Shown: positions 4,207-43,440 of the stretch, in pieces
Layout of the letters: the number at the start of each line of letters is the position of its first letter
Position numbering within the stretch: the first letter of the stretch is position 1
DNA from: Schmidtea nova
Lineage: Eukaryota
DNA length: 64,000 nucleotides
Reading direction: 5' to 3'
Assembly (NCBI GenBank): GCA_044892505.1
Contig: CM097883.1
Location: forward strand, 18,786,001 to 18,850,000
Position numbers and translations under genes: made by a program
The notes under the pieces: model-generated
The model's input: only the letters and a program-made list of their open reading frames with translations
What the model was told of the DNA's origin: nothing
Databases searched by the model: none

Positions 4207-4470
4207 CTAACCCCTCCATGAACCCAACAATTTTAAGAGTGCTCCTGCCTTGTGGTTATCGGATACTGGCCACGACGGATCTCCCTCCCATCTGATTCTA
4301 AAATGATACGGGAATGCCATCGCCCGGATATCAGCATTTACATGGTGTCGCTTCCATGCTCGCAGGTGACGCTCGGCAGAGTCCCTGATCCGTTCGGGGA
4401 TCGAATTAGCATCGCTTAATATCATCTTTAGGGGTTGGCATCGCCGCATACTGGATTTCTTTGTTGACAT
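4207..4470 (-). pseudogene. Truncated LTR ORF-A paralogue
   Basis: AERHLRAWKRHH...FRIRWEGDPSWP matches the RHLRRW...LRWEGDTDW motif; the frame ends where the LTR is truncated. Confidence 0.75.
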
Positions 4471-6592: not shown

Positions 6593-6963
6593 TGTTGGGC
6601 CAGCCAAATCGAGCAGCATCTGAAAATAATGTGCAATCAATAAAATAAATTAAATACAGAATAACAACAAAATAAATTACCAACACCAAAGCGTAACAAA
6701 ATAGGCGGCAACATCTAAAAGAAATAACATATTAATCAAAACAACAAAAATCTTCAAAACTCACTCATGCGAAGCAGATAAAATTGGAATATGACAGCGC
6801 GTGGGCGGATGTCACCGAAGACCTAAAGCAAAATCAAATAAAAATTAAATCATACAAAAAATAAACTTACCGCATGATTAACCAAACAAATCGGCGAGTT
6901 AAGTTAGGCAGCAAAAAGCCGACAACATGAAAAAAACGAAGCAAACATACACACATACTCGAT

Positions 6964-7002
6964 GCTGATTGGCTAACCAACAACACCGGTTCAGTATAAA
7001 TA
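6964..7002 (+). promoter_or_regulatory. LTR promoter: inverted CCAAT box (CTGATTGG) and TATA box (TATAAA 6995-7000)
   Basis: Canonical motifs and spacing; similar CCAAT-then-TATA arrangements occur in the related LTRs at about 5.6 kb and 42.9 kb (minus strand). Confidence 0.7.
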
Positions 7003-7093
7003 CTGAAGTAAAATCAGTATTTGGGAATGTCATTTTTACCGAGTGTAACTTGCAGTTGAGCATTGAGAACATTGTAAATCCAACTTGAAGAGA

Positions 7094-7107
7094 AATAAAA
7101 GGTAATT
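7094..7107 (+). promoter_or_regulatory. Poly(A) signal AATAAA abutting a 5' splice donor (AAG|GTAATT)
   Basis: AATAAA 7094-7099, GT 7102-7103. Related LTRs show AATAAAG|GTATGG and AATAAAG|GTATGT at the equivalent position. Confidence 0.65.
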
Positions 7108-8122
7108 TGGTGTTATGTTATTGATGTGTCTAAACCCTCATAATTGTTTATAACCATATTAAAATCCATAAGGTTTTCCGGAGGCCTAACAGCCTGACGG
7201 ATTCTCTGGCCTCTCAGCGCAACACAACCTTTCGGTTGTGAGGTGCTGATGCGGCGGGACCATAGGTGTACTAAATATTTGGAAAGCGGAAGGGGTTAAA
7301 TGCACATAGGGTATCGAGTAAGACCTAACGATCATGAATGAAATCAAGGTAGAAATGATCTAATATAAACGTTATGCATCACGATGATAGGGTATCGAGT
7401 ATAAACTAGTAGTCGTAAACGAGCGTAAAGTGAAGCCCGTTTGTTTTGGAAGGAGATATATTGTGGCGAAGTCTAGACGAGGGATAGACGTGTAGTGAAT
7501 AATATTAGGGTAAATGAATTAGGCGACGACGAGGGTAGGTATATGTCAACCTTAGCGCGTACGAGTTCGGGCATAGTGAACCTAGTATCAAGGGTTAAGG
7601 ATAATCGATAACCTCTGTCAGCTGTGTTTAGTCGCCAGGAGAGATGATAAATAAATCACAGGCATCGAGAACTGATAAAATGATGAACCCCAGTGAGTAA
7701 GTACCACAGGAACTTACGAGAATTACCCGACATGGGATGATCATTGCTGGTTAGATGAGGAAGTGATTGAGAACGACTGATGAAATTGAATGTAATAAAT
7801 AGTATTATCCATAAATAAAAACGGTGGTAGTTGAGTGATTGAACCTGATTGATGAGTATTAAGTATAATAGCGATATGATTAACAAATGCAACAAATCGT
7901 GCGTAGCTGAATCGTCGAAATAAAAAGCGGAGTACATTAGCTTCAAGCTATCATATAACACGACCCACATTAAGTCACCAACAATGATCCGGCAAAAATA
8001 CAGAATGTACCACTCAGACCTACAAAATTTCATAAATAATACGGGTGGGTCGACTAATATAAATAGGTCCGTTCTACCATAGAATCCGTAGAGTAAAAAC
8101 AACCATCTTCTTTAGAAATACT

Positions 8123-8758
8123 ATGGTGAAACTGGAGAGTTGCCGAGAGAAGCCGATGGTCGCGTACCCTATAAAGATAGAGAATACCATCCTTCGTAGG
8201 AAACGGCGCACCCGCTCCGTCCTCAGACCAAATACGAACCCAAATATCAGAGGAGAGAACGAAGCACCCCGAAAAGTTGTCGAAGTATCACGTCGCCACC
8301 TACGACGATGGATGAGGGCCCATATGAGCTCAGCCGCTAGCACCCCAGCTTGCACGTTTGAACTACAGTTGCGGTGGGAAGGAGATACCGATTGGGTACC
8401 CTCCTCGGATCGTATCAAGCCGGAAAATACCCGATGGTTTTATCAACTCCTAGATGAGTTAAAGCAACCCCGCTGGCTACTGAGTACCGGAATGATGTCC
8501 GGAAAAGAGCTACATCAACTCGGATACATGCTGCTAGACAGGCCTCGGTGTGGCGACACTGGGGAAGTCTTCGCCTACTCAAACGCGCCAGGAAGCGTGT
8601 CATTGGACCAACACCCCGAGCCCAAAGACCTTCGTCTCTGGGAGGTATTCATCTTTCGGGACAAGTTAAGTTGGAGCCCTGTCCCGGAGTTATACCATGA
8701 GAGCGGAATCCGTCGTGACGAGAACACGGCCGACCAGGAATTACGACCCTTCATCTAA
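8123..8758 (+). CDS. LTR-encoded ORF-A, 211 aa, unknown function, Arg-rich N-terminal motif
   Basis: Intact in both LTRs; four diverged homologues in the window conserve all or part of RHLRxW and RWEGDxxW. Confidence 0.8.
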   Translation: MVKLESCREKPMVAYPIKIENTILRRKRRTRSVLRPNTNPNIRGENEAPRKVVEVSRRHLRRWMRAHMSSAASTPACTFELQLRWEGDTDWVPSSDRIKPENTRWFYQLLDELKQPRWLLSTGMMSGKELHQLGYMLLDRPRCGDTGEVFAYSNAPGSVSLDQHPEPKDLRLWEVFIFRDKLSWSPVPELYHESGIRRDENTADQELRPFI

Positions 8759-8949
8759 ATCGCAAGGAAACCGATCCACCGAAGGAATATTTGATGTGTA
8801 TTAAAAATAAATGTATTAATTTTTGGGTTTTGTTATGTCTTTGAATGTATGAAGCGATCTGAGAGTGAAACACCTGTTTGATAATAAAGATAGCGACTGG
8901 GAGAACATACAAACCATACATAACCCGATTAATTATACATTTTACAGAG

Positions 8950-9513
8950 ATGAATGAACATCCAACTAGGAACTACAAACAAGAGGCAAAAGAGCATAAA
9001 GCTCGATCGCGAGTCCTAGAAAACCGCTTGCGGCAGCTAAACGAAGAGCACCAGCGAATTAAAGCCACGTGGTTCAACCCAGAGAGGGTTAAAACCATCC
9101 TGCAAGCCAGATACAGGGCGGAACGAACAATCGACGAGCAAGCTAGGGAGGTAGCAGCACTAAAGACGGAGCTGTCAAATTACTTGAGGGCATCAACTCA
9201 GGAGTTTATCACCGAGCAACTACGCCCAGTGATCAGGGCTAGCACCTTTAATCGGTGGGTGGACACAATATCGATGACAACAAGTACCCAAACGGAAATA
9301 GAAACCATCCCAATCACAACTACCCCAACGTCCCCAATAATTCTGGAAGGCTCGAAACGAACAAAGAGACGGAATCGCTTGGGAGCGAAAAAGCGTAGGG
9401 AGAGACGCGCATATGCGGATCGCCTAGGAATCGAAGTAGACTTGCTCAGTGGTCTATCTGAACAAGAACTACTAAATGTAATTCGACCCGCTGTATTGTT
9501 GAACTACAAATAA
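8950..9513 (+). CDS. LTR-encoded ORF-B (coiled coil, TSTQT motif, basic region); ATG at 8950 preferred over TTG at 8878
   Basis: Homologues at 3225-3821 and 40585-41142 start at the equivalent MN; acceptor-like TTTACAG precedes the ATG. Confidence 0.8.
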   Translation: MNEHPTRNYKQEAKEHKARSRVLENRLRQLNEEHQRIKATWFNPERVKTILQARYRAERTIDEQAREVAALKTELSNYLRASTQEFITEQLRPVIRASTFNRWVDTISMTTSTQTEIETIPITTTPTSPIILEGSKRTKRRNRLGAKKRRERRAYADRLGIEVDLLSGLSEQELLNVIRPAVLLNYK

Positions 9514-9903
9514 ATGTATAAAATGAATGATTTGACTTGTCTTGTTTGTTTGACGCATGTATGAGAATTAAAAGTAACAAAAACCTGGTTCATTTAAAGC
9601 TGCAGATATCTAAAAGGTAAATTACCCTAGGACAAAAGAAAAGAGCATAAGTGGGACCGAAAGAAAGCCACAGACACCTTCTATCGGTAGTGGTGGACCC
9701 GTGAATAAACAAGGGAATAGTAGCCGAAAGGTTGCTCACCTGCCTTGTCATTTCACAACGTTGACACAGTACCAACATGATGAGTAGTTAGGGATACATC
9801 ATGGGTGTCAGCGGGGGAATGTTTTTATGTTGGCGAGATCACCCTAACATATAAAATCATAACGATCTCCGTTGTCAATCTAACCAACACACCAGCATAA
9901 ATT

Positions 9904-9922
9904 TGGGGGCTCAGCCGGGATT
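9904..9922 (+). other. Primer binding site complementary to tRNA-Pro
   Basis: TGGGGGCTCAGCCGGGATT versus the tRNA-Pro/MLV-type PBS TGGGGGCTCGTCCGGGAT (2 mismatches); it starts after a 6-nt spacer following the LTR end. Confidence 0.8.
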
Positions 9923-11599: not shown

Positions 11600-12180
11600 T
11601 CGTGAGCATAGGTCTCATAGTGAGCATAGGTCTCGTCATAAAACGTAACATCCTAGTGAGCGTAGGTCTCGTCATAAAACACAACACCAAAGTGAGCATA
11701 GTTCTCGTCCGAAAATATAAATCTCGTAGTGAGCAGAGTTCTCATTAATAAACACAAGACCAGCGAACATAGTCCTCATCAGTGAGCGTAGTTCTCATTA
11801 ATAAACATAGTCATTGTAGTGAGCTTAGTTCTCATCAGGAAACATAATTCCTGTAGTCACCATCAGTGAGCATAGTTCTCATCGGGGAACATAGTCCCCG
11901 GAGCAAAGAGTTTCCATCAGTAAGCAAAACCCTCATAACAACCATGTTTTGCCAGTGAGCATAGTTCTCGTCAGTGAGCATAGTTCTCGTCAGTGAGCAT
12001 AGTTCTCGTCAGTGAGCATAGTTCTCGTCAGTGAGCATAGTTCTCGTCAGCGAGCATAGTTCTCGTCAGTGAGCATAGTTCTCGTCAGTGAGCATAGTTC
12101 TCGTCAGCGAGCATAGTTCTCGTCAGTGAGCATAGTTCTCGTCAGTGAGCATAGTTCTCAACGGTGAGCATAGTTCTCGT
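11600..12180 (+). repeat. 19-bp tandem array CAGTGAGCATAGTTCTCGT (~12 contiguous copies, 11953-12180) with degenerate spaced copies upstream
   Basis: Unit starts at 11953, 11972, 11991, 12010 and so on to 12162; the GTGAGCATAG core recurs from about 11602. Confidence 0.95.
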
Positions 12181-12504
12181 TCGAAATAAAATATCGAGTA
12201 AAAGCCCACGAGAAAGACGACGAAGTGAGGCAGATGAGGACTAAATAAAACATAAAACTATCCGGATAGTGAAGATCAATAAGCGATAATAGAGATGAAT
12301 AATTGATAATGAGGATAAATGATGAGTAGTGAAAATGAATAGCGAATAATAAGGAATAAGGGTTGAAAGAAACCGAATTAATAACGAGAGAGTTGAAGGT
12401 GCGCACCTGGGTATTGATAAATGCGAGTAAAGCTGATTATGTGGCCTAATGATGTTAAAGTATGCATACAAGGAGGAGTAGCAAAGTAAAGTGAGTAAGT
12501 GGAG

Positions 12505-12973
12505 GGTGCTGACTGGAAAACCCAGCAGACCATGAGATTCGAGGGGAATAAAAGGAAACCGGTTTGTTAAGACAGGTAAAGTGGTAAAGACGCTAGCTGG
12601 AAAACCCAGCAGGTCAACGATAACGATCAAGAAAGATCGAGAGAATAAAAGTGAGTAATAATAAAGTGGTAAAATTGAGGACGCTGACTGGAAGACCCAG
12701 CAGGTCAAAAGTTATGATCATCGGAGTAACGAGCAGTTAAAAGTCGACAGTGAAGAGATAAAGGGTGGATAATAAGAGCGCTGACTGGAAAAACCCAGCA
12801 GGCTAATGAAACGACAATTGAGGTCGAGAATAATGAAGCAGAAGTAAAAGGTGAGATTAAAAGCGCTGACTGGAAAACCCAGCAGGCTAATGAGATAATG
12901 AGTGAAGTTGAAAGAACCAGAGTTCGAGATAAAAGGTGAGATTAAAAGCGCTGACTAGAAAACCCAGCAGGCC
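12505..12973 (+). repeat. Six dispersed copies of GCTGACTGGAAAACCCAGCAGG at ~85-90-nt spacing
   Basis: Copies near 12508, 12593, 12683, 12780, 12865 and 12949; each can fold as CUG-A-CUGG/AAAAC/CCAG-CAG. Confidence 0.85.
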
Positions 12974-13846
12974 AACGAGAGATGTCAGTTGAAGTAAAGG
13001 TGAGTAGAGATGAGAATTGAAATGAAGTAGTAAACGTAGTGCGAATAGGAGATAAAGCGAATAGTTGGGAAATAGAGTAGTAGACAGATAAGGGGGATTT
13101 GAACTCAGAGCCAGAGAAGCTTGAGAAAAGTAAAGGGGATAATAAGAGCGCTGAGCGACAAAGTAATTGGGGAACTGGGGAAAAGTAATTGGTGTATTTG
13201 AAAAAGAATAGATAATTGATGCGACTGCATAGATAATTTAAATAGACTTAAAATCAAGGGAAATGGGAAAAATGGGGATCTTCATGAATTATGACTACAC
13301 CCGTGAGAGGGACGAGAAACACGATAACGGGGACGTATCGTGTAAGTGATTATTTGTTTTAAGGAAACAAATCAATCAAGCAATTCAAAGCAATCTAGCA
13401 GTCAGAGCAATCAAAAGAAACAAATCAAAGAAGAAGCAAAGCAAAAGCGGAGTAGAAAAGCAGTTGAGAATATAAGCAGTTGAGGAATAGACAAAATTGA
13501 GGGACGAGAAACAAGATCAGGTATAATACCAATCTTAACGGAAGCAGAAAGAAAAGCAGCGAAAAGGACAAGAACAGGTAACAAGCCTAAGCAACAAAAG
13601 AACAAACAAGTAGAGATCAGCGATAATTCGAGTAATAAAGAGAATCAAGAAGAAACCCCAGAAGATCTAGAAGTACAAAACGAAGTAGAGACGATAGACA
13701 GTGAACTAGTCAGAGAAAACAGAACAAGAAGCGAATCAAGAGATAACGAAACAGAGAGTAGCGAAGAAGAAGAGTCGAATTCAGAAACAAGTGGTGAACT
13801 AGAATTAAAGAAAACTAGTACAGTATTCCAAGATAGTGGAATCGGG

Positions 13847-16513
13847 ATGAGTGATCACAGAGAGGATCTAAGAGAAAAATTCAAGGGCGAACCATTTAAT
13901 GGAGACGCCAGTAGATTGGACACGTTCCTGAAAGAATTTGGCATATTCGTGGATATATGCTGATGGAGTGCAGAAACGTTAGCGAATCGAATCCCGCTAT
14001 ACTTGAAAGATAGCGCATTGGATCTGTATATTGAGAAGAGATCGGGAAGTAATCCACCCAGAACGTGGGAAGCAATCAAGGAGTTCTTCCAACAGACGTT
14101 TGGGATAAATAAAGTGTTGAACGAAGCGTTCGATGAGTTCTCAGCAAGAAAACAGAGGAGAAACGAGTCAAATGCAGTGTACGCAAGTGAATTAAGAAAG
14201 TTGGCGAAACTGGCATTCAACAGAGGAAGCCCAGTAGACGAAGAATTGATGACAGCGTTATTCGTACGAGGTCTCAGGAGACCTGACATCAGAGCACAAG
14301 TGGGATGCAAAGGATGTAAAACAGTAGATGAAGCGTTGGAAGCAGCCAACCTATTCGAATTGCATATGGCAATGAATGACATGAGAATTACGGCGGTAAT
14401 GGGAAAAACGACAGAAGATGAAGAACAAGGAAAAAGAAACATGAATCAAAGTATTCCCCATTCACAGAGATTGTTCAAAGAACCGCCAGCGAGGAAGAAT
14501 AACGGATATATCACAGTAAACACGAATGGAGGAAATAGTTACAATGACAGGCAGAATAGGCAATGTCAGACGTGTGGGAAAAACGGACATTGGCAACAAG
14601 ATTGTTTTCAGAATGTAGCCTGCAAACTGTGTGGACAAAAAGGTCACTCAGAGAATCGATGTTATGGGAAAACGTGTTACACATGTGGGAAAACGGGACA
14701 CATGTCAAGAGAGTGTAATCAACAGAGAAGTTGGTCAAACAGTGGAAATAGACAGAACTATGGAAATCGACCAAGCTATGGGAATCAGGGTCAACAACGG
14801 AATAACCCAAACAGCAGTGCAAATGAAGCCAGTATGAAAGAAGCTAAGTTGAGACAGGAGGTATCCAGATTACACGAGATAATCGAAAGCATGGCAAAAG
14901 GAAGCCAGCAAGCTGCTCAACCAAAGATAAACATGATCCAGTTAATAGAAGCTGAGGCCGAAAGAGAGAATAGAGAAAGCCAACAGAAACATAATCAAGA
15001 ATGGGCTAGAGTACGACGAGAAGAAGAACAAGTCAGGCAACAACGATTACAACAGTTAAAAAAGGGAAATCCAAGGATCAACATGATGCGAGCAATGATG
15101 GAAGAGAAGCAGCAGGATGAGTCAGACGAGTCAGAAGTTAAAGAGAAAAGAAACGAAGGACAGAAACAAGAAGAAGTGAATCAGGAAGTAGAAGTCGCGG
15201 AGCAGAAGCAAAAGGATGAAGAAGTAGAAAAAGAAACAGAAACGGAAAAAGAAGTAGAAAAAGAAACGAATCAAGAAGAGGAAGTAAGAATCAAACAAAG
15301 AGGAATGTTGGTGATCATGCCGAATGATCACGTGTGGCGATTCAAATACGATGTAAAAGAAGAAGTGGGAAGACTGTTCAACAAAGTAAATGAGATGATT
15401 CCGGGAGTGACGAAACTGCCCAGAGAAGCATTCCTACAAACAGAGGATTTACCGGAAGTAAAGTTGAAGATGACTGATATATGGGAAGATATGGGAGTAA
15501 CAGAAACGAAAATAAACGTGATGATCATCAGAGAGGTGGAACCGGAAAAAATCCCACCACCAGTGAAACATCAAACTCGGATTAGTCGAATATTCAAGGG
15601 AAAAATAAGACGAAGACGGTTGGAAGAAATAGACGAGTTGGAGAAAAGAATGGGAAAAGCCGAAATAATGGGAAACGAGAAGGAACTAACCCAGGAAGTC
15701 AGCAAAAACGAAACGAGACCAACCGCGCATATTGGGATGCTGAGACACCCAAGACAAGAATTGTCAGATGAGGAAGACGACAGCGAAGTTAGCAGTCTGG
15801 CAGGAGACATGCTAAAGGAACCAGAAAACGAGGACAAAAAGATGGAAGTAGTCGAGACAATAGAAACATTGTCAGTAAAGGAAGACGAAATTCAGAAGCT
15901 GATGGATAACGCGTTGGAAGTAATCCATAACGAGGAGTTTATCGACACGAAACGATATCGAAAGTTTATACGAGCAGTATGGCAGATGAAGTATAAAAAG
16001 TGGTTACAAGAAAGAGAAGTGAGAGTAATACAAGAGTTCATAGAGAGGTTATTGAAAGAACCACTCAACGAATACATAATACAGATATGGATAAACGAGT
16101 GTTCACCGAGAATCTGGATAAGGAACCCAATGACGGATGGAATTTACCGATGGGTTGAAGACAGATTGGGAAGCTCGTACAAAGACAAATTCATATATTC
16201 GGAAAACGGATTGGTGAGAAAAGGAACGCATATGATAGACACAGGCATATGGCCAGGAGAAATAACAACGCTATCTATATGCAACACCAAAAAGGAAGAG
16301 AACTTACAAGGAATCGTCAAAGAAGCGAATACGTGTTACGAGATGAGAATAAAACCTCAGTTGATAGAGGCAAAAGAAAGAATCTTGGCGGAGAATTTGA
16401 ATACGATGATAGAACAGATCATCCAACAAATCAAGAAACATCGAAAGGAATTGACGAAAAGCGAGTATGAGAATTTGAAACAGTGTATCGAGAACATACG
16501 AGATACAAGTTAA
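13847..16513 (+). CDS. gag: Gag (capsid, three CCHC knuckles, long C-terminal extension with two ubiquitin-like folds); interrupted by in-frame TGA at 13961-13963
   Basis: FGIFVDIC*WSAETLANRIPLYLKDSALDLY is gag N-terminal-like; knuckles are CQTCGKNGHWQQDC, CKLCGQKGHSENRC and CYTCGKTGHMSREC. The frame is otherwise open back to 13346 except for a TGA at 13481. Confidence 0.9.
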
Positions 16514-16555: not shown

Positions 16556-19500
16556 ATGGGAAAAGAAATGTTTAAACGAGGAGAGGTATCAGATCTGAAG
16601 ATTACCGTGAGATTACCAAACGAAGAGACAAAACAAATTGAGGTAATACCAGATAGTAAAGTGGGAGAAATAGTAGATGTCATCAATGAGACGATATTGC
16701 AACGAGAACGGGAAGATGAATTCGAAGATGACATCGCGATAAAATACAAGGAACATCTACTGAACGAACGTGACGAAAGACGAGCGTACAAAATCGGCAT
16801 ATGGGATAATTATCAGACAATACACGTCATCAGAATGGATGATGTGCAAAGAGCAACACCAAGAGATGAGGAAAGGAAAAAGAAACGACGAGAGGACGTT
16901 ATGCGTAAGCTGAGGCAGATAGTAGAAATTTATCGGAACTGGCAGATGAAGCCAGAATGGGAGACAATATTGGGAGAATTGGATCTTAACAGACGACGGT
17001 TGACGCCAGTAGAGAGGCAATGGGATAACAAAGAAAAATGTTGGAAAGTGAAAAGAGGCGTGTATGAAGAAGATCCAGAAGGAGAAGACAGATACGAAAC
17101 GAATACGAAACGGATATGTATGGTAACAAGGAGAATATTACCAACGGACTTAGACGGACCAGAAACTGCAGTAATATGGGCAGAATTGGAGAAATTGAAA
17201 ACGAGTGAATTGATCGAGCTATTGAGAGGAAATACTCGGGGAAAAAGACAAACAATAAAAGGCTTAGCACAATTCATAATCTCAAATGGAGAAGACATAA
17301 CGAACTTGAGAAAAGTAGCTAAAGCGATAGCAGAATACAAGAGAGTTAACGAGTGGTGTCCAGAGCAACTAGACGATGTAATAAAAAAGTGGAGAAACAA
17401 AGAGTTTGCGGAGGAAACGCCACAGAAAATACATTTGAGGATAATGTATCCGAATCAGAGAAAAGAAGAGTTTTGGGTGATGCTAACAGAAAAAGTGAAA
17501 AGTGTTAAAGAGAAACTGATGTACGAACTACCATTCCACCTGCAACATCAAGGACGATCGTTGGATAATAATTTAGAAATCTGGCTGACACCAGTACAAT
17601 TGGACCTAATGAACACGCTAACAGTGGCACAAATAGTGGGTCAACCACTGAAGTTTAAAGAGGAAAAGAAAGCGAAGGGAAGCATGAGTACACCAAGTCC
17701 GATGAAGTCAACAATGACCCCAGGAACAAGTTCGGGACAAGTAAGAACAACACCAATAAAAACGAGAGAGAGAACACCGCCAGAAGCGTATGACGTCGAT
17801 GAGATACTAACAGATAGTGACGAGGCGATAGAAGAACTAACAAAGTTGACTCAAAAACCAACGGCGAATATTTTCGACAGAATAATACAGATGCCAATAA
17901 CGTCACCAGCAGAAATCGACGATCAAGGAGTGGAACAGGAGGTAGTCATAGAAATGGTAAACGATTCGGAAGACGAACAAGGACAACCACAGTTTACTCA
18001 AGAAATGGAAAGATGGTTGGAACAACGAGCAAACGAAGGAAGGGATGTTACAGAAGAAACAGGAAGAGCAACGAGATTTGTAGAAACCGGAACTGGAATG
18101 GAAAAACGACCAAGAGGAAGACCAAAGATAGATCCAGCAACAACAATCCCAAAATCAAGGGAAGAAAGGAGACAAGAGCAATGGGAGACTTGCTTGAAGA
18201 AACTGGATAAAATCGCAGAGATCAGAGGAAAAGAGGAGAATCAAGTTTGTCAAGGAGAAGAATGGCTCACCAAAACGATAATGGATGTGTTAGCGGTAAT
18301 TGACCCAGAATTAAAGAATTTGTGGCGGATAAACGAACCCAGTACAAAGGCAAGGATGCTACACAATGCGATAGCACCAATTATGCCAGAATTGATAAAA
18401 GCGAAAACAAAATCAAATCATCTGGATTGGCAAGGAACCACGATGTTAATAAAAAAGCTACTGAACGGAACAGAAACGGACAGCAAATATCTAGTAGCAA
18501 TCTCGTATACGATATACAATTTGTTAACGCTAAGCCGAGGAAGCCCGAAGTCAAGTCCGATGGGAAGACATATCAAGAATACGGCGATGATTATCGAGAA
18601 AGAAATTGAACCATATATCCTCAGAAAAGGAGGATGGGAAAAGTTCATAAAAGAAAATCAGACAAAAGAAGGTTCTAACGTGATGAGAAAGAAACTCGAA
18701 GGAGTATTGAGAGAAATGGAGAATAGACAAACGATGCAAGGAAACGGAAGATCGACGTTGAATTTAAACTCGATAATCATGATGATGTTAGTATGGTTGT
18801 TAAGCACAGAGGGTGTAACAATATTTGAAGTATTTGATTGTGATCAAATGAAGTTAGGAGAAAAGTACTCATTGAGAGGTACGGAGCAATGCAAAGATGC
18901 AACTCCAGTAGAGTTGAAAGAGAATAAAAAAGAACAATGGTACCACGTATATCAAGAGGCAGAACTAATAAAGACAATGGTGAATGAATGCAAGGTACAG
19001 AAGACGAGATTCGCATTCTATTGTGGGAGAGGACATTATTCAGCAATTGTCATGCCAGGAACAGAAAGAGAACCAATCGTATTGCAAGGGGAAGACTGCG
19101 AAGCATTATTTAAACATGGAGAAGTGACAACGAGAGATAAAATCAAGATAAAAGGAAAGCCAGGAATGATGTTGCAGCAGACGTATTATGTAGCAGGACG
19201 GATTACGGGAGGAGAAGGATATTGTCAAGGAGAAACCTACCCAATATTCGGGGTACCTGCAACCAACTTAGTAGTGATGGATACGTACATAGTCGAACTG
19301 AAAAGCTACGAAGCATTCTTCGAACCAACAACAGGAGAAATGAAAACGTTATCCATGTGTAAAATTGACAGAAGCATGTGTCAAACGGGAATGTCAACAT
19401 TGGTGTATAAACCAAAAGTGAACGAATGTCAATTACAACTGCTACAAGGAACAAAGTTCGACGAAATTCAAGGAAAAACGTTCCAGGAAGAGGACGAGGA

Positions 19501-28753: not shown

Positions 28754-28877
28754 AGGGTGGAATATGAGTGTAAATAATAGTGTAAAAACCAATGCATAAC
28801 CGTATACGTATGGGTATAAATATTATAAAACATAAAAACAGAAAAAAAGAGAATGATGTATATAATCTAGAAAAACA

Positions 28878-29228: not shown

Positions 29229-29319
29229 TGAATAAGCGGAAAATTGTGTAAATACGTGTAAATAAAGAACCAGAAAAAAATCAAAAATATGGGGAAATTG
29301 ATGTAAATATTGTTGTAGA

Positions 29320-30732
29320 ATGAGAGCAGAAAGTGAAGCAGATTACCAAACAATCGAGATCCTAAGAGGAGAGAATCGACAATGGGGAGTAAATGTGACG
29401 TGTGTAAAGTGTAAAAATCTACTGTTAAAACCGAGGCAAACGGAATGTGGATGCAGGATGTGCACCAAGTGTATATTGCAAATAATCAGTGAAAGTGAGA
29501 CAAGAAAGTGTCCAGAGTGTGACGATAAACTACTAATCAACGAGACGAAACCAGACAAAGCAATCCAAAAGGAGATCTGGAAGATAAAAACAGAGTGTAT
29601 AAACCAACCATGCGAATGGAAAGGACAAATAATCGAACTAAGACAACATCTGGAGAAATGCGAAAACAAGAAAGCAACATGTGAAAAGTGTCAACAGACG
29701 ATAACCATCAAGCAGTTGAAAAGTCACAAGAACGAGTGCAAAGCAGAGATAATAGAGTGTCAATACTGCAAACAAAGAGAGACGAGAGAAGTAATCGAAA
29801 CAGAACATCTCAACGTAGCAGAAGAGAAAGTGTGTGGAAAATTCAGAGGAATTTGTCCAAGTAATTGTGGAGCCAGAGAAGAGGTGATGTTGAAAGAACA
29901 TTGGGAACAGTGCGAATCAAGACCAAGAAAGTGCGTATGGAGTAAACAAGGATGTGTAGTAAAGAAAACGAGCAAAGAGATGAAAGAGCATTTGGAAACG
30001 GAAACAGTACAACACGCCGAGATGTTAACAGCAAATTTGAACGGAATGGAACAAACCATACAGAAGCTGGGAAAAGAAATCGAATCTCAGAGAATAATGA
30101 CGGAGCTGTTACTAGAAACAAGAGAGCAATTCGAGCTCACCAGAGAGAAAATGATGGAGAAAATCAAAGTCATAGAGACGCTAGTAAAAGAAGTAAACGT
30201 GCGGCATCAAATGTGGGTGCGAGATGCAGAGGATATCGAGAGTTTACCTGTTGCACTATATATATGGAAAATCAAGAATTTCAACGAAAAGTTCGCAGCA
30301 GCAAAAGCAGGAAGTCAGGTGTCGGTAACAAGTCCACCATTCTATCTGTGGAAAAATGGATACAAAGTTCGAATGAGAATTTATCCAAATGGAGATGGAT
30401 CGGGAAAGGAAACGCATGTGTCATTATTCTTCGCGTTGTGTAAAGGTGGTTACGACGACATATTAGAATGGCCGCTAGAAACAAAGGCTATAATGAGAGT
30501 GAAAAACTCGAAAGAAACAATAGCGAGAATATTCAAAATTGATGGTAAGCACGAAGCTTACAAAAGACCGACCACAGAATGTTCATTAGCGACTGGAGAA
30601 CCAAAATTCATACCACACCAAACCATGTGGGAAATGTTGTACGACGACAACTTATATGTAGAGTTGGAGATCGAAAAGAAAGCAAGTACAACAATGATGA
30701 ACACGAAGTCAACGAAAGGATGGTTGGAATAG
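29320..30732 (+). CDS. TRAF: TRAF-like protein (RING, TRAF zinc fingers, coiled coil, MATH/TRAF-C domain), intronless
   Basis: CVKCKNLLLKPRQTECGCRMCTKC...CPEC RING; CEWKG...HLEKC zinc fingers; YIWKIKNF...SPPFY...GYKVRMRIYPNGDGSGKETHVSLFF...DDILEWP MATH. Confidence 0.93.
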   Translation: MRAESEADYQTIEILRGENRQWGVNVTCVKCKNLLLKPRQTECGCRMCTKCILQIISESETRKCPECDDKLLINETKPDKAIQKEIWKIKTECINQPCEWKGQIIELRQHLEKCENKKATCEKCQQTITIKQLKSHKNECKAEIIECQYCKQRETREVIETEHLNVAEEKVCGKFRGICPSNCGAREEVMLKEHWEQCESRPRKCVWSKQGCVVKKTSKEMKEHLETETVQHAEMLTANLNGMEQTIQKLGKEIESQRIMTELLLETREQFELTREKMMEKIKVIETLVKEVNVRHQMWVRDAEDIESLPVALYIWKIKNFNEKFAAAKAGSQVSVTSPPFYLWKNGYKVRMRIYPNGDGSGKETHVSLFFALCKGGYDDILEWPLETKAIMRVKNSKETIARIFKIDGKHEAYKRPTTECSLATGEPKFIPHQTMWEMLYDDNLYVELEIEKKASTTMMNTKSTKGWLE

Positions 30733-30821
30733 TCAGAATGAACGACCCTGTAAATAAAGTGTAAAAATCGACGACAACAATAAACGTATAGTATAACAAG
30801 TGTAAATTTGTAAATTACAGA

Positions 30822-31961: not shown

Positions 31962-32034
31962 AAAGAGGCGAAAAATCCGTGTGTAAAAATGTACAAATCG
32001 ATGTAACAGGTATTAATCAGTAGAATAATCAGAA

Positions 32035-32764: not shown

Positions 32765-34294
32765 TGTTGGGCCAGCCAAATCGAGCAGCATCTGAAAATA
32801 ATGTACAATCAATAAAATAAATTAAATACAGAATAACAACAAAATAAATTACCAACACCAAAGCGTAACAAAATAGGCGGCAACATCTAAAAGAAATAAC
32901 ATATTAATCAAAACAACAAAAATCTTCAAAACTCACTCATGCGAAGCAGATAAAATTGGAATATGACAGCGCGTGGGCGGATGTCACCGAAAACCTAAAG
33001 CAAAATCAAATAAAAATTAAATCATACAAAAAATAAACTTACCGCATGATTAACCAAACAAATCGGCGAGTTAAGTTAGGCAGCAAAAAGCCGACAACAT
33101 GAAAAAAACGAAGCAAACATACACACATACTCGATGCTGATTGGCTAACCAACAACACCGGTTCAGTATAAATACTGAAGTAAAATCAGTATTTGGGAAT
33201 GTCATTTTTACCGAGTGTAACTTGCAGTTGAGCATTGAGAACATTGTAAATCCAACTTGAAGAGAAATAAAAGGTAATTTGGTGTTATGTTATTGATGTG
33301 TCTAAACCCTCATAATTGTTTATAACCATATTAAAATCCATAAGGTTTTCCGGAGGCCTAACAGCCTGACGGATTCTCTGGCCTCTCAGCGCAACACAAC
33401 CTTTCGGTTGTGAGGTGCTGATGCGGCGGGACCATAGGTGTACTAAATATTTGGAAAGCGGAAGGGGTTAAATGCACATAGGGTATCGAGTAAGACCTAA
33501 CGATCATGAATGAAATCAAGGTAGAAATGATCTAATATAAACGTTATGCATCACGATGATAGGGTATCGAGTATAAACTAGTAGTCGTAAACGAGCGTAA
33601 AGTGAAGCCCGTTTGTTTTGGAAGGAGATATATTGTGGCGAAGTCTAGACGAGGGATAGACGTGTAGTGAATAATATTAGGGTAAATGAATTAGGCGACG
33701 ACGAGGGTAGGTATATGTCAACCTTAGCGCGTACGAGTTCGGGCATAGTGAACCTAGTATCAAGGGTTAAGGATAATCGATAACCTCTGTCAGCTGTGTT
33801 TAGTCGCCAGGAGAGATGATAAATAAATCACAGGCATCGAGAACTGATAAAATGATGAACCCCAGTGAGTAAGTACCACAGGAACTTACGAGAATTACCC
33901 GACATGGGATGATCATTGCTGGTTAGATGAGGAAGTGATTGAGAACGACTGATGAAATTGAATGTAATAAATAGTATTATCCATAAATAAAAACGGTGGT
34001 AGTTGAGTGATTGAACCTGATTGATGAGTATTAAGTATAATAGCGATATGATTAACAAATGCAACAAATCGTGCGTAGCTGAATCGTCGAAATAAAAAGC
34101 GGAGTACATTAGCTTCAAGCTATCATATAACACGACCCACATTAAGTCACCAACAATGATCCGGCAAAAATACAGAATGTACCACTCAGACCTACAAAAT
34201 TTCATAAATAATACGGGTGGGTCGACTAATATAAATAGGTCCGTTCTACCATAGAATCCGTAGAGTAAAAACAACCATCTTCTTTAGAAATACT

Positions 34295-34930
34295 ATGGTG
34301 AAACTGGAGAGTTGCCGAGAGAAGCCGATGGTCGCGTACCCTATAAAGATAGAGAATACCATCCTTCGTAGGAAACGGCGCACCCGCTCCGTCCTCAGAC
34401 CAAATACGAACCCAAATATCAGAGGAGAGAACGAAGCACCCCGAAAAGTTGTCGAAGTATCACGTCGCCACCTACGACGATGGATGAGGGCCCATATGAG
34501 CTCAGCCGCTAGCACCCCAGCTTGCACGTTTGAACTACAGTTGCGGTGGGAAGGAGATACCGATTGGGTACCCTCCTCGGATCGTATCAAGCCGGAAAAT
34601 ACCCGATGGTTTTATCAACTCCTAGATGAGTTAAAGCAACCCCGCTGGCTACTGAGTACCGGAATGATGTCCGGAAAAGAGCTACATCAACTCGGATACA
34701 TGCTGCTAGACAGGCCTCGGTGTGGCGACACTGGGGAAGTCTTCGCCTACTCAAACGCGCCAGGAAGCGTGTCATTGGACCAACACCCCGAGCCCAAAGA
34801 CCTTCGTCTCTGGGAGGTATTCATCTTTCGGGACAAGTTAAGTTGGAGCCCTGCCCCGGAGTTATACCATGAGAGCGGAATCCGTCGTGACGAGAACACG
34901 GCCGACCAGGAATTACGACCCTTCATCTAA
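34295..34930 (+). CDS. ORF-A copy in the 3' LTR
   Basis: Identical to 8123-8758 except one V/A change. Confidence 0.75.
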   Translation: MVKLESCREKPMVAYPIKIENTILRRKRRTRSVLRPNTNPNIRGENEAPRKVVEVSRRHLRRWMRAHMSSAASTPACTFELQLRWEGDTDWVPSSDRIKPENTRWFYQLLDELKQPRWLLSTGMMSGKELHQLGYMLLDRPRCGDTGEVFAYSNAPGSVSLDQHPEPKDLRLWEVFIFRDKLSWSPAPELYHESGIRRDENTADQELRPFI

Positions 34931-35121
34931 ATCGCAAGGAAACCGATCCACCGAAGGAATATTTGATGTGTATTAAAAATAAATGTATTAATTTTTGGGT
35001 TTTGTTATGTCTTTGAATGTATGAAGCGATCTGAGAGTGAAACACCTGTTTGATAATAAAGATAGCGACTGGGAGAACATACAAACCATACATAACCCGA
35101 TTAATTATACATTTTACAGAG

Positions 35122-35685
35122 ATGAATGAACATCCAACTAGGAACTACAAACAAGAGGCAAAAGAGCATAAAGCTCGATCGCGAGTCCTAGAAAACCGCT
35201 TGCGGCAGCTAAACGAAGAGCACCAGCGAATTAAAGCCACGTGGTTCAACCCAGAGAGGGTTAAAACCATCCTGCAAGCCAGATACAGGGCGGAACGAAC
35301 AATCGACGAGCAAGCTAGGGAGGTAGCAGCACTAAAGACGGAGCTGTCAAATTACTTGAGGGCATCAACTCAGGAGTTTATCACCGAGCAACTACGCCCA
35401 GTGATCAGGGCTAGCACCTTTAATCGGTGGGTGGACACAATATCGATGACAACAAGTACCCAAACGGAAATAGAAACCATCCCAATCACAACTACCCCAA
35501 CGTCCCCAATAATTCTGGAAGGCTCGAAACGAACAAAGAGACGGAATCGCTTGGGAGCGAAAAAGCGTAGGGAGAGACGCGCATATGCGGATCGCCTAGG
35601 AATCGAAGTAGACTTGCTCAGTGGTCTATCTGAACAAGAACTACTAAATGTAATTCGACCCGCTGTATTGTTGAACTACAAATAA
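35122..35685 (+). CDS. ORF-B copy in the 3' LTR
   Basis: Same protein as 8950-9513. Confidence 0.75.
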   Translation: MNEHPTRNYKQEAKEHKARSRVLENRLRQLNEEHQRIKATWFNPERVKTILQARYRAERTIDEQAREVAALKTELSNYLRASTQEFITEQLRPVIRASTFNRWVDTISMTTSTQTEIETIPITTTPTSPIILEGSKRTKRRNRLGAKKRRERRAYADRLGIEVDLLSGLSEQELLNVIRPAVLLNYK

Positions 35686-36073
35686 ATGTATAAAATGAAT
35701 GATTTGACTTGTCTTGTTTGTTTGACGCATGTATGAGAATTAAAAGTAACAAAAACCTGGTTCATTTAAAGCTGCAGATATCTAAAAGGTAAATTACCCT
35801 AGGACAAAAGAAAAGAGCATAAGTGGGACCGAAAGAAAGCCACAGACACCTTCTATCGGTAGTGGTGGACCCGTGAATAAACAAGGGAATAGTAGCCGAA
35901 AGGTTGCTCACCTGCCTTGTCATTTCACAACGTTGACACAGTACCAACATGATGAGTAGTTAGGGATACATCATGGGTGTCAGCGGGGGAATGTTTTTAT
36001 GTTGGCGAGATCACCCTAACATATAAAATCATAACGATCTCCGTTGTCAATCTAACCAACACACCAGCACGAT

Positions 36074-37959: not shown

Positions 37960-38485
37960 CCATCGTACCTGCAGGGGCACCGAATGATGTCCGAAGGCAA
38001 GTGGAGAGGCATTTGCGCCATTGGAAAAGGGAATTTGGCTAATCAGCCCTTTTTGCAGGTGAAAATCAGATGGATGTCAAGTTACGGTGGGAAGGTGATG
38101 ACCATTGGCCGCCGATGAACGACGTACAGCGAGCCCATCAAACGAGCTGGTTTCTGGAAATGCGGGACAAGGAAGGAGTCCCAGGGGGCTAATACATTTC
38201 CGGCCCATTGAGATCACCGAAGTTCATCGCCTCGGTTAGATCGTACTGAAATGTCCATGTAATATCTATACGGGCGAGCAGATTCCATACACAAATTTAC
38301 CTTGCGTAGTGCCGGACTCCCGAAGCCACGATTCGCCATGGGCTTCGAGCATCGTGTGGCAAGAGATATTCCTGTACCAGGGACAATTATGCTGGACTCC
38401 GAATCCAGCCTATTATCACGACAATGACACGTGGAGAAACGATAGTGAATACTCCCAGGACTGGAGCATCGAATTCAACGATTAA
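37960..38485 (+). pseudogene. Decayed LTR ORF-A paralogue
   Basis: RRQVERHLRHWKRE*...KLRWEGDDHWPP...LYQGQLCWTPNPAYYHD, with stops and a frameshift. Confidence 0.75.
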
Positions 38486-40584
38486 GGCCAAAGAATGCGA
38501 ACATTTCGACCCATAATGTCGATTAATAATGTGATCATAAATGTTAAAATAAAAAGTTTTGTCTTATGAAGTTGTGAATTTGAATCGTTTGTTGAGCATG
38601 CTTGATGGTGTGAGGAAATAAAATAAACGGAAATGACTAAGGTATGATGTGGGATAAATAGCGTGGTTGGGGAAAATGCTAGGGATTAGCTACCCACCGG
38701 AGTAACAACTTATAAGGATGTGTACCTGAGTATTCTTAGCCAGAATGGGGGAGTTGGTTTTTGGTTAGGAATGAGAATTTGCGGGGGAAAATCAAGCACT
38801 TACGCTGCGCCGAAACAAACTTATTTAGCGTTGCCATCGCTACGAGGTGACTTGGTTTAGTCCCGAGAAATTGAAGACAGGTCAAAAGAAGATTTGCTGA
38901 GAAGAAAGTTGCTAGGCATCATTTAGCGGTGGGCACGGCAGGTGGCGCTAAGCGACATGGATCTCGATCCAGATAGGTACCGTATAGAATACGGCCTAGT
39001 CTCAAATACCCGTGCTCAAAATCAGGCGATATTGACGGAACTATTCCGCGTCGGAGATTCATTCGGAATAGTGTGCGAGGCATAATCCCAGCAAAACCGA
39101 ACGTTTCAGAAACAAACGCCGAAGAGAAACCGCATTCTTGGGCAGGATATATCATCTGTCTCCTCCACGCCGAATAAGCGGCGAAGACGATGTTTTATTC
39201 TACAAATCGTGGACAATGGATAGAATCGTATATAATCAATTTTTGTATGCTTAATTTTAGTTCTTCCTTTGCAGTTATTTCTTATTACTGATGATTGTTG
39301 TATTCAACATAATTTTGAAATTTAATGATGTCATTTATTGAATAAATATTATTAAAAAGGAGAAATTGATCGGATTGGTTCAACATAAATTCATAAGCGA
39401 AAAAAAAGAAGAGCAATCGACAAATGAAAACAGTTGCGATAAAATCAATAATTTTTTTCAGCAGTTCAATTTTATCGAAGTAAAACATCACTCTAATACT
39501 TTAAAAAATAAATATGTGATTCAAGTTATTGTTTTTTAATTATATTTTTATAATCTTGACTGGGTCAGACAATCCTCAATTCTGATTACGTTTGGGGGGG
39601 CGTTGGTGAAAGGTTTCTAGAATAAAGGTGGTGGTAGTTTTAAAGCGCTTGGGAATCGCTAAGCCACACACTATATAGTACCATTTTTGGAAAAAAGGGC
39701 TTCAAATGTTGTATTTATTCATGATTTAAATCTTGGAGAACCAAGTCGATTAATACACTCTCTAACGCACTTACAAACTACTTGAACAGATTCAATAATT
39801 TTCATATTTATTTTTTCTAAGACTATAGATCAAAACTTGATAAAGGCTGTGCCGAAATACCGTGTACCTAACAACCAAAAAAATTTTTTTTCTTACATAA
39901 ATTAATATAAAAATTATTGAATTATAAAAAGAGATCAAAAGTGAAACCAAATGATAATTATGCTGAAACAGAGTATTGCAAATTTATTTTGGGTGGAGTG
40001 AATGTTTATAATCGCTAGGATAAATTTTAAATATCCAAATTATCAGGATGAATTTTCATGATTATTTCCAACATTTTTACCTTTCTAATCCAAGATTATT
40101 TTTGTATTTTCACATTTTATGGTCTCTCCGTATAATGTTAATCACGTGATTTATTTATTAATATAGTTAATGCGGTTATTTATATTACTATTGCTGGTGC
40201 GTTGGTTGGATGTTCAACTGAGATCATGTTTGATTTTATACGTTAGGGTGATCTCGCCAACATAAAAACATCTCCCCGCTAACACCCATGATGTATCCCT
40301 AACTACTCATCATGTTGGTGCTGTGTCAACGTTGTGAAATGACAAGGCAGGTGAGCAACCTTGCGGCTACTATTCCCTTGTTTATTCACGGGTCCACCAC
40401 TACCGATAGAAGGTGTTTGTGGATTTCTTTCGGTCCCTTTGCAATGCGCTCTCTCGTTGTACTAGGGTAAACTAAATTATTAGGGTGCCTGTAACATTAA
40501 ATGAACCAGTTTTACTTTACATTTAATTTTCCAACCATACTACAAACAAACAAGTCAAGTAATTCAGCGATGATACATTTATTT

Positions 40585-41142
40585 TTAATTCAAAAACACA
40601 GATGGTCGGATTACATCTAACAACTGTTTTTCTGAGAGCCCGCGTAGCAAATCGACTTCGATGCCTAGACATTCGGCATAGGCTCGGCGCTCACGTCGTT
40701 TCTTCGCCCCTAAGCGGTTTCGACGCTTGGTCCTTTTGGATCCCTCTGAGGGTATCGACATGGTTGGGGTAGTCATAGTTGAGTTCGACTCAGTTTCCGT
40801 CTGAGTACTCGTGGTGACGGCGATTGTGTCCACCCATCGATTGAATGTGCTCGCCCGGATCATTGGGCGCAACTGTTGAGTAACGAACTCCTGCGTAGAT
40901 GCTTTTAAATAATTGTGAAGTTCTAGTTTGACTGCTGTCACTTCTCTCGCCTGGTCTTCGGCTACCCGTTCTGCGCGATATCTAGCTTGCAGTATCGCTT
41001 TGACTCTCTCTGGGTTGAACCACGTGGTCTTGACGCGCTGGAGTTCGTCATTCAACTGGCGCAAACGACTCTCGAGGACCTTAGAGCGAGCCTTGTGCTC
41101 ACGAGCCTCCTTTTTGTGATCACGAGAGTTGTCGGTATTCAT
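40585..41142 (-). CDS. ORF-B of the sister LTR, 185 aa
   Basis: Clear homologue of 8950-9513 (WFNPERVK, RASTFNRWVDT, TSTQT, KRTKRRNRLGAKKRRERR). Confidence 0.8.
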   Translation of the reverse strand: MNTDNSRDHKKEAREHKARSKVLESRLRQLNDELQRVKTTWFNPERVKAILQARYRAERVAEDQAREVTAVKLELHNYLKASTQEFVTQQLRPMIRASTFNRWVDTIAVTTSTQTETESNSTMTTPTMSIPSEGSKRTKRRNRLGAKKRRERRAYAECLGIEVDLLRGLSEKQLLDVIRPSVFLN

Positions 41143-41343
41143 CTACAACATTGGGGGTTTAGTATAAGTGATGAAGACTTATTTGTTTTCCTATTTCTAT
41201 CGTTATGAAACTCAATTGCTTATTACTCAAACATTTATCTGCAGTCATTCAGAAATCATAACAAGACTTGTCACAGAAGGTTTATTCAATTATTACACAA
41301 TGACCTTTGGATCTTCGGATTTTCGGATATGGACTTCTTCCTC

Positions 41344-41992
41344 CTAGAAGAAAGGTCGCAATTCCAGGTCTGCACGGGTGTCGTCCCGCCTCTTTCCGTC
41401 GGCTTGATACAATTCCGGGGACGGGTGCCAACACAACTTGTCCTTATGGATGAACACCTCCCATAGACGGAGATCTTTCGGCTCTGGTTTGGACTCCAAT
41501 GTGACGCTTCCGGGAGCGTGCGGATAGAGCTGGATTTCCCCAATGTCGCTACACCGGGGCCTATCCAGGAGTAGATATCCTAGCTCGTACAATGCGGGAC
41601 CTGTCATGGTTTCGGAGCACAGGACCCACCGAGGTTGTCCTGCGTCGTTTGTCATTTGGATGAACCATCGCGAGGGGTTCATTTTTGGACTGGCAAGGAG
41701 ATGGCATCCACTCCGCATCTCCTTCCCATCTGAGCTGGAGGGTAAACGAACATGACGCGACTCTGGTTGCTGGGTGAGAGTGTTGTCGCATCCATCGGCG
41801 GAGATATCGATGGGCTTGTCGCACGATTCGAATCGGTGCTCCTTCCACCCTTTCCAATTTCATTTTCCCTTGGGGATTGGCATGACACTCTGACATAGAT
41901 CGGGCGCGCTTTCCATTCGTCTTCTTTCGGCCTAGTGGCGGCTGGATAGACGCAGTTAGTTTCGGTGATTCAATCTTTTCGCACTTCATCAT
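41344..41992 (-). pseudogene. ORF-A of the sister LTR, split by one frameshift
   Basis: The N-half is in ORF 41561-41992 (HRYLRRW, LRWEGDAEW) and the C-half in ORF 41344-41718 (LGYLLLDRPRCSD, PEPKDLRLWEVFI). Confidence 0.85.
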
Positions 41993-43440
41993 TGATTTTC
42001 TGCAAATAATTTATTAACGTTGCCAGTCTCATTTATAGTAGATTGATCCACGCGCGTTGGTGATCTAGTTGGTATAAATCGTGTGGATTTCTACTTCCCG
42101 GCCGATTAACTACACTTTGATCTGCGAGATATACCGGGTGGGGTGCTATTATTACCACTACTCTTCATAAGATGCAGATTTAATTAACCTTTGTTTTTCA
42201 GTCGTTTTATTTCTACGTCATGGTCGATAAACTATTATTTGTAACATCACTTGTTTATATATTTCATTTCTATTTTCATCATACACTCAACATTCTGATA
42301 TCATCAGCCCCGTCGGCAACTAAAAATGATCAAGCTCTTGGGGGGGGTTGGATTTCGGTTCTCATAACGTATTTAATCCCTGAAAAAATGTTCGTACTCT
42401 AACGGCTCATTCACTGTAGGTCCGTCTCTTGGTGTGACTGCCCTATCTACCCTGATACTCGATATCAGGTTGTATGTAGGTTATCGGCTATCCTTTTGAC
42501 ATTTCAATTCACTACATGCTATGTATACCCCTTGACTTGGATTCTCTGTGGTCGGTAATATACCTTCTAGATTATCTCTACCTCGTCTGAATTATGGTCG
42601 ATCCGATGTTTCTTGATATCCCACGTGCACCCCTCCTTCCCGATCGATAAATAGTTATTACACCTAGGGTCTCGCCGCATCAGCACCTCATATGAAAATA
42701 TGTTGTGCCGAGAGGCCGAGAATCCCGTCAGATCGCGAGATCTTCGGGACAGACTTATTGATTTTAAATATTATTATGAGGGTTTACAAAATGAAAAACA
42801 ATAACGATTGACATACCTTTATTTCGTTCCAACTAGGTTTCACAAAGTTACAGTTAGCAAGTCGTGACTGAAAGTTCACACTCGGTAAAAATGATTGATT
42901 TTATACTGATTTGACTTCAGTATTTATACTAAACCGGTGTTGTTGGTCGGCCAATAAGCATCGAGTAGGTGTGTATTCATCGCTACTCATTTTGGTTTGT
43001 CTGTTTCTCTGTGTAATTTAATTCAATGATTTGTTTGTTCACTCATGCGGTAATTTTTCTTTTGTTATTATTTTATTTTATTTTAGCTTTTCGGTGATGT
43101 CCGCCCACATGCTGTCATTTTCAGATTTTATCTGATTCGCATGGGTGAGTTTTTATTGTTATGGCTGTTTGATTTATGTTTTATTACTTTTTAGATCATG
43201 CCGCCTATTTGCTACCTTCTTGGTAATGGTAATTTATTTTGTTATGGTTTTTTATATATTTATTGCATTGATTTGTATTATTTTTCAGATGATGCCTGAT
43301 TTGCCTGGCCCAACACATCCTACTACTCCTTAACATTAGGAGTTTAAGGTAGAATATATAATAATTATTTGTTGATATTGTAAAGGAGGCAGTAATAATA
43401 AAATGAAAGATAATGGGGCAAATGAAGTAAAATGAAAGTA

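Follow-up and report, generated by a model that had tools for sequence, protein, structure and literature searches.

The closest described counterpart of the element analysed here is Burro (GYPSM1), a giant planarian Ty3/gypsy element that exceeds 30 kb, is present in thousands of copies, and encodes its env between gag and pol in a shared frame (PMC6431247). Burro also encodes ankyrin, BIR, BCL2-like, Ubl, and MATH_TRAF_C domains, as noted by Jurka in 2007; the MATH domain is part of the polyprotein in S. mediterranea, whereas D. tigrina has it on an accessory ORF located upstream (PMC6431247). That planarian Burro carries TRAF-domain (MATH/TRAF-C) cargo is thus already known and has been in print since 2007, a precedent that the initial annotation overlooked. 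According to a study cited in PMC13465017, the Burro1 IAP protects stem cells from apoptosis and aids regeneration. A second related system consists of GAG-ENV-POL errantiviruses with a gB-type env, described in PMC13524379 from Nematoda, Bryozoa, and Platyhelminthes, which share with our element the gag-env-pol order and a class III-type fusion protein; the words TRAF, Burro, ankyrin, and accessory do not occur in the main text of that paper. The available parts of PMC8532177, PMC11410931, and PMC13238120 hold nothing further on TRAF. In the literature searched we found no report of a full-length stand-alone TRAF in an LTR element, although supplements, Repbase, or Dfam may hold one. Relative to this background, what is new here is 1) such a full-length stand-alone TRAF, 2) another TRAF (P0025) located behind an integrase tail, 3) the loss of a receptor-binding serine triad, and 4) operon-like spacers between accessory genes. 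A complete TRAF extends the apoptosis/ubiquitin kit of giant gypsy elements to the level of receptor-proximal adaptors and offers a testable gene.

We analysed a stretch of 64,000 nucleotides of Schmidtea nova DNA (hereafter the window), which contains a Ty3/gypsy element of 29,477 bp (~29.5 kb) with an internal region of 22.9 kb (Table 1). LTRs, a target duplication, and the PR-RT-RH-IN order are all present. The LTRs, each 3305 bp long with TG...CA ends, are 99.9% identical, and the element is flanked on both sides by the target duplication CGAT. Since the LTRs show only 3 differences over 3305 bp and CGAT is duplicated, the insertion is recent. The putative primer-binding site may resemble tRNA-Pro-type sites. 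Short tandem and dispersed repeats are found in the long 5' leader (11590-12200 and 12577-12980), and the two LTR ORFs, repeated in the 3' LTR at 34295-34930 and 35122-35685, have no Pfam match. The gag gene of this copy is broken by an in-frame TGA (13961-13963) within capsid homology, where five of seven related polyproteins match with their capsid portion, so the copy is probably not autonomous. A TAA (16511-16513), which may be either a lesion or a regulated stop, separates gag from the polyprotein in the same frame, whereas gag is fused in 5/7 relatives.

Table 1. Features of the giant element and of its accessory gene cassette (window coordinates).
Feature	Coordinates	Strand	Remarks
5' LTR	6593..9897	+	Preceded by CGAT; carries two ORFs, 8123-8758 and 8950-9513
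Putative primer-binding site	9904..9921	+	Directly after the 5' LTR
Accessory ORF, 152 aa	10444..10902	+	C-terminal IAP-type RING (zf-C3HC4_3, E 5.8e-9)
gag	13847..16513	+	Capsid-like region, three CCHC knuckles
Polyprotein, 4065 aa	16556..28753	+	In the frame of gag; env, protease, RT, RNase H, integrase, ankyrin repeats
Spacer 1, 124 nt	28754..28877	+	TGTA motifs; YAG 7 nt before next ATG
Accessory ORF, 116 aa	28878..29228	+	Coiled-coil-like, no family
Spacer 2, 91 nt, before TRAF	29229..29319	+	Three TGTAAATA, one AATAAA; TTGTAG one base before TRAF ATG
Full-length TRAF ORF	29320..30732	+	RING (C8) 28-67, five zinc fingers 93-232, coiled coil ~229-303, MATH 312-451
Spacer 3, 89 nt, after TRAF	30733..30821	+	TGTAAATA, two AATAAA; TTACAG one base before next ATG
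Accessory ORF, 379 aa	30822..31961	+	Long coiled coil, no family
Spacer 4, 73 nt	31962..32034	+	Three TGTA; YAG 2 nt before next ATG
Accessory ORF, 174 aa	32035..32559	+	Signal-peptide-like start and hydrophobic segment (read from sequence)
3' LTR	32765..36069	+	CGAT directly downstream, purine-rich tract directly upstream

The polyprotein is 38-45% identical to seven other giant polyproteins, and the env-before-protease order is common to all. Its env, located between gag and protease, is a Monjiviricetes-type fusion protein (PF24664, E 3e-71), and a hydrophobic segment at the C-terminus lies 3' of the ankyrin repeats. Weak Ubl-like and BCL2-BH2-like segments are N-terminal to env. The latter contains a BH2-like motif (GGW; 18446-18715 in the window) also present in the relative P0160, with which its alignment is scattered. 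Six of its seven weak PDB matches are Bcl-2 family members (E 1.4-2), a single-sequence fold model reached a pLDDT of 48 with unrelated helical bundles as best matches (Z 6.8), and there was no usable match in Atlas. The Ubl-like segment has weak UBX/RA matches (E 0.05-0.08), and no Ubl was found in the corresponding segments of relatives. The element resembles Burro in its size, which for Burro is about 30 kb with an internal region of at most 25 kb, its CCHC gag, its mononegavirus-like fusion env before the protease, and its ankyrin repeats and apoptosis/ubiquitin genes, which include TRAF/MATH. It differs in several respects: 1) it is just below the size given for Burro, which "exceeds 30 kb" (PMC6431247); 2) a stop ends gag before the polyprotein; 3) no BIR-like pattern was seen in the six frames of the element, nor a BIR by Pfam in the listed ORFs, while Burro has one; and 4) its TRAF is complete and forms a separate ORF downstream of pol, whereas for Burro only MATH_TRAF_C is named. 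We file the element as Burro-like without assigning it to Burro, since the comparison is with the published description and not directly with sequence.

The TRAF ORF extends from an ATG at 29320 to a TAG ending at 30732 and encodes 470 aa, with no internal stop. Its RING-fingers-coiled coil-MATH architecture is complete. The MATH domain is detected by Pfam above cut-off (MATH_2, residues 314-451, E 7.6e-28; TRAF-mep_MATH, E 1.7e-25), and the N-terminal matches fall below the curated cut-offs (TRAF3_RING, residues 28-67, E 1.4e-4; zf-TRAF, E 7e-5). Against PDB sequences, the MATH domain matches those of TRAF5/3/2/1 (E 1e-25 to 1e-27), and the RING and fingers match TRAF6 (E 4e-14). An AlphaFold model based on a 16-row alignment is elongated (mean pLDDT 83, pTM 0.38), with a 75-residue helix at 229-303 and the strands of the MATH sandwich at 311-452, and its best PDB fold matches in Foldseek are TRAF domains. 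A count of ligands finds eight in an all-Cys RING (C8 variant), together with five fingers. The initial annotation had described a captured TRAF with complete RING-ZnF-coiled coil-MATH architecture, and each of these analyses agrees with it, as does the location of the ORF between LTRs flanked by the CGAT duplication. The same annotation called the gene intronless, which is true but says little, because the flank also has an uninterrupted ORF, stomatin-like and 388 aa long; nor is it proof of capture through RNA, because any LTR-element cargo loses introns. We also considered that TRAF might be a nested insertion within the element, and rejected this because terminal repeats are absent: only short repeats of chance size surround it, none of them inverted.

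When residues 236-452 were modelled as a trimer, the score was 0.60 versus 0.02 for the best of three controls, against a mark passed by 21 of the 30 solved pairs but by none of the 23 single chains used for calibration, and in eukaryotes by 17 of 29 but by only one of seven without a solved relative. The runs share at least 75% of contacts, with a pLDDT of at least 80. Since TRAF trimers have already been solved, this score may reflect memory. Our working proposal, for which we would put the chances at about even, is that TRAF is a trimeric decoy adaptor that damps host death/immune signalling. The protein would form a trimer through its coiled coil and MATH domain, as the model supports, the MATH domain would bind the tails of receptors or adaptors, and the RING would bind zinc but probably be poor at recruiting an E2 alone. 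In cells that express the element, such a decoy or rewiring adaptor could weaken TNFR/TLR-type signals for death and immunity, presumably beside the IAP-type RING, the BCL2-like segment, and the ankyrin repeats encoded by the same element. The apoptosis/ubiquitin theme of Burro cargo (PMC6431247) and the reported protection of stem cells by the Burro1 IAP count in favour of a decoy, and the weakness of the BCL2 likeness against it.

The RING coordinates zinc through C28, C31, C43, C45, C48, C51, C64, and C67. Its motif CGCRMC, where TRAF6 has CGHRFC, confirms the Cys-for-His change that had been singled out in the initial annotation, which turns out not to be special. Among 157 homologues, 81 have His at this position, 36 have another residue (Cys in 25), and 40 have no RING match. 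We therefore rejected the idea that this change is element-specific or inactivating, and since Cys is also found in 8 of 17 canonical-looking TRAF rows it is no mark of capture. A Cys in place of the RING His is still a zinc ligand. Together with the MATH pocket changes described below, the start of the RING is more telling, with CVKCKN in our protein versus CPICLM in TRAF6. Lys30 and Lys32 replace an Ile and a Leu that contact Ubc13 and have a role in E2 binding, and an Asp follows the last RING Cys. These substitutions argue against an active C8-RING E3 ligase that would build ubiquitin chains or degrade host restriction/signalling proteins, alone or with the IAP-type RING or a host TRAF, and the positions concerned are widely variable among relatives. 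Such a ligase, which we consider rather unlikely, would be in keeping with a RING that has lost none of its eight ligands, with the retention of the first finger, and with the alignment of RING-to-ZF1 to TRAF6, an active ligase, without notable gaps. All-Cys RINGs such as that of CNOT4 are active, and a pure decoy would have no need of a RING.

The MATH domain resembles that of animal TRAF1/2/3/5 in its fold and in its R/Y/D polar pocket (R353, Y355, and D359), and the aromatic pocket is kept as well; domain order and the predicted trimer are further points of likeness. However, H411-E412-A413 replaces the S-S-S of TRAF3/5, so that the serine triad (hot spot 2) is lost, and E427 is found in place of the pocket Cys. 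The coiled coil is shorter, the RING is all-Cys, and identity to the named vertebrate TRAF2-like matches is 25%, which also sets the protein apart from animal TRAF1/2/3/5. Among the receptor-tail hot spots of these TRAFs, PMC6125299 assigns the serine triad to PxQxT/PxEE tails, and under the decoy proposal its loss would be expected to alter specificity. Of the short-group relatives (see below), 11 could be scored and none has an S-S-S triad; S-x-S is present in 15 of the 16 canonical-looking rows that could be scored.

How long has TRAF been resident in the element? The initial annotation had noted that its A-rich codon style is that of pol and took this as a sign of long residence, which four-fold degenerate sites bear out. 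Their A/C/G/T composition is 0.60/0.08/0.25/0.07 in TRAF (n=139) and 0.58/0.10/0.25/0.08 in the pol core (n=389). T reaches 0.34-0.50 in four coding pieces from the flanks (one stomatin-like ORF, one CCT fragment, and two hAT fragments), which are a small and imperfect host sample, and another gypsy RT of the window falls in between. Codon log-ratios per codon give the same picture, with +0.29 ± 0.04 for TRAF, +0.24 for env, and +0.23 for gag, versus -0.28 to -0.46 for the flank pieces (leave-one-out). These figures support a long residence of TRAF in the element. They also bear on selection, which the initial annotation had likewise proposed and which holds at the protein level. Between our protein and its best full-length relative P0011, 27 of 27 zinc ligands are identical as compared with 52 of 179 other sites, and each of 13 aligned short-group relatives has 23-27 ligands with at most one miss. 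Because the frame has stayed open and the zinc ligands have been kept despite full synonymous turnover, we infer long purifying selection on the protein. The intact frame itself is uninformative on selection since the insertion, because gag is broken and the LTRs are too young for decay. As a control within the family, the 187-aa LTR ORF compared with a diverged copy gives pN 0.155 and pS 0.85 and is under purifying selection.

It could be objected that TRAF is a neutral passenger or a recent capture, without function, a view to which its absence in frame from all seven related polyproteins lends some support. We think this very improbable, since synonymous drift to the element style is complete, yet a 470-codon frame is open with every zinc ligand kept, and since the nearest relative is only 36% identical. 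The decoy proposal instead supposes that the Burro-like element, a giant Ty3/gypsy with an env, acquired its TRAF from an animal host in the distant past, and that selection on the element has maintained it as an accessory gene.

Next to the accessory ORFs, we observed signals that suggest how TRAF might be expressed. A splice-acceptor-like YAG is located 1-7 nt before the ATG of seven of seven accessory ORFs (five internal and two in the LTR, so that it also precedes 8123, 8950, and 10444), as compared with 125 of 570 other ATGs, and with neither of the two start candidates of gag and pol. When a T-rich stretch is required as well, the counts are 7/7 and 20/570; the YAG rule was fixed after the data were seen. 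The joint shuffle probability of YAG before the accessory ATGs is ~9e-6. Elsewhere in the window, an LTR ORF has two diverged copies, and both retain the YAG. The four spacers contain 14 TGTA, and all five TGTAAATA found on both strands of the 64-kb window fall in them, an outcome seen in 0 of 2000 dinucleotide shuffles. AATAAA, present in two spacers, is not significantly enriched (3 seen versus 2.2 expected). The TGTA motifs would fit a 3'-end signal, and TGTAAATA would also fit a Pumilio or forkhead site. In flatworm operons, gaps of ~100 nt are resolved by spliced-leader trans-splicing, according to PMC8629364 and PMC12582326. Since the spacers carry these signals, YAG acceptors precede the ORFs, and the spacing is that of flatworm operons, TRAF is most likely expressed from its own mRNA. 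This mRNA would be small and released from a cassette of several genes when a 3' end forms in the spacer, with a 5' end produced by splicing onto the acceptor just before the ATG. The splicing would either add a spliced leader in trans, as happens in flatworm operons, or occur in cis from an upstream donor. Spliced-leader operons of flatworms and nematodes, as far as described in the same two sources, likewise have same-strand ORFs ~100 nt apart and an AG acceptor before the downstream start; unlike them, our cassette lies inside an LTR element and is known from its sequence signals, with which cis-splicing is also compatible. The spacer signals offer a possible answer to how giant elements express many downstream ORFs. 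No report of an operon in an LTR element was found in the literature searched, within which such an operon would be new, although other sources may contain one.

We then placed the protein among its homologues in a tree of 36 rows, namely the window TRAF, 33 of the 36 non-His matches, and two named vertebrate TRAF2-like proteins, a biased sample from which three long rows were dropped and the other His-type matches left out. In this unrooted tree, for which uneven composition was flagged, a split with support 95/97 places 17 canonical-looking rows on one side and 19 short rows, ours among them, on the other, and the window TRAF groups weakly with its nearest rows (83/60, 94/95). The RING Cys is present in 17 of the 18 short relatives. 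One protein on the same side of the split, P0025, shows a direct link to an element: its residues 14-52 are a gypsy integrase tail, which matches all eight giant polyproteins tested (best match 64%, E 1.4e-9 within this small test set) and continues in frame into a whole TRAF. This indicates a second element with a TRAF right after integrase. P0025 is the only one of the 36 non-His relatives in which such a link is visible. The A-rich amino-acid make-up of P0001, P0002, P0006, P0011, and P0084 (0.54-0.62, versus 0.53 in ours and a canonical mean of 0.40) hints at more element-borne TRAFs. By contrast, the lack of an in-frame TRAF in all seven related giant polyproteins, a search limited to the polyproteins as distinct from neighbouring ORFs, seems to count against TRAF being universal cargo, and it also weighs against the decoy proposal. 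Among proteins of 896-2555 aa, no TRAF-pol fusion was found, the one match being a multi-MATH protein, and tblastn found no second TRAF copy in the window outside the element. A scan of 80 GTDB stretches returned a single locus (L001, on a 2-kb contig), with a frame that has MATH only and no pol, which gives no information on genomic context; this MATH-only TRAF (892-1461), of P0019/P0025 type, is in a bacterial MAG and is probably eukaryotic contamination.

Because Burro has a MATH domain and thousands of copies (PMC6431247), and because PMC6109357 counts 121 MATH-domain matches in S. mediterranea and terms them a TRAF expansion, it is plausible that element TRAFs inflate the host count. A much broader claim, possible but doubtful in our judgement, is that the short, all-Cys-RING, serine-triad-less TRAF clade is wholly element-borne. 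It would then go back to a single capture, owe its spread to giant gypsy elements that bear an env, be expressed from in-element spliced-leader operons, and account for much of the planarian TRAF/MATH "expansion". If this were true, some of the "host TRAFs" that have been studied would be transposon genes, and both host TRAF counts, such as these 121 matches, and RNAi or expression results on "TRAFs" would need to be read again.

Two further views of what TRAF does start from other systems. TRAFs of viruses, such as ISKNV ORF111L and other megalocytivirus or giant-virus TRAF-like proteins, are also host TRAFs captured by a mobile genome, as far as the available sources describe them. They differ in that these are DNA viruses, and their fold matches to our protein are only 18-22% identical, which makes an independent capture likely. 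ORF111L, the only viral TRAF for which a characterisation was found in the literature searched, binds TRADD and induces caspase-8 apoptosis (PMC3352826), and this pro-apoptotic activity weighs against a decoy. It favours instead a signalling activator, pro-apoptotic or activating NF-kB/JNK, that would aid particle release or LTR transcription, as do the iridovirus TRAFs among the top viral fold matches and the fusion-type env in the element. Such an activator is quite improbable in our view, because the adjacent cargo (IAP-type RING, BCL2-like) suggests survival and because the killing of cells would be costly to an integrated, inherited element. Alternatively, TRAF might be kept because it helps the host, for example in stem-cell survival or wound response, which is compatible with a decoy and has parallels in the support of regeneration reported for the Burro1 IAP (cited in PMC13465017) and in the planarian TRAF-like genes that PMC7586133 reports as required for cell survival; the words "transpos" and "Burro" do not occur in the main text of the latter. 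We regard this mutualism as unlikely, since the element codon style and the recently inserted copy show a TRAF that travels with the element rather than being fixed at one host locus.

Across the window, tRNA and Rfam scans gave no matches, and outside the element several other repeats and genes can be recognised. A lone LTR of a sister family (40192-43315, minus strand) is ~71-74% identical to the LTRs of the element, with mismatched flanks (CTAT and CATC). Within it, a block of 207 nt (40231-40437) is 96% identical to 9653-9859, with a fold z of -2.2 and no Rfam match. The LTR and its ORFs have further relatives, all decayed, at 3225-3821, 4249-4407, 5303-6039, and 37977-38461, so the wider LTR family is abundant in the genome. 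The flanks also contain a stomatin/Band 7 ORF (52895-54061), a TCP-1/CCT chaperonin fragment that looks like a piece of a pseudogene (1150-1998, minus strand), a decayed hAT transposase (49387-51838), a 21-bp tandem array (54780-56700), a second decayed gypsy element (58785-62443, minus strand), and fragments that, from reading alone, resemble a Penelope-type RT/GIY-YIG element (62804-63998, minus strand).
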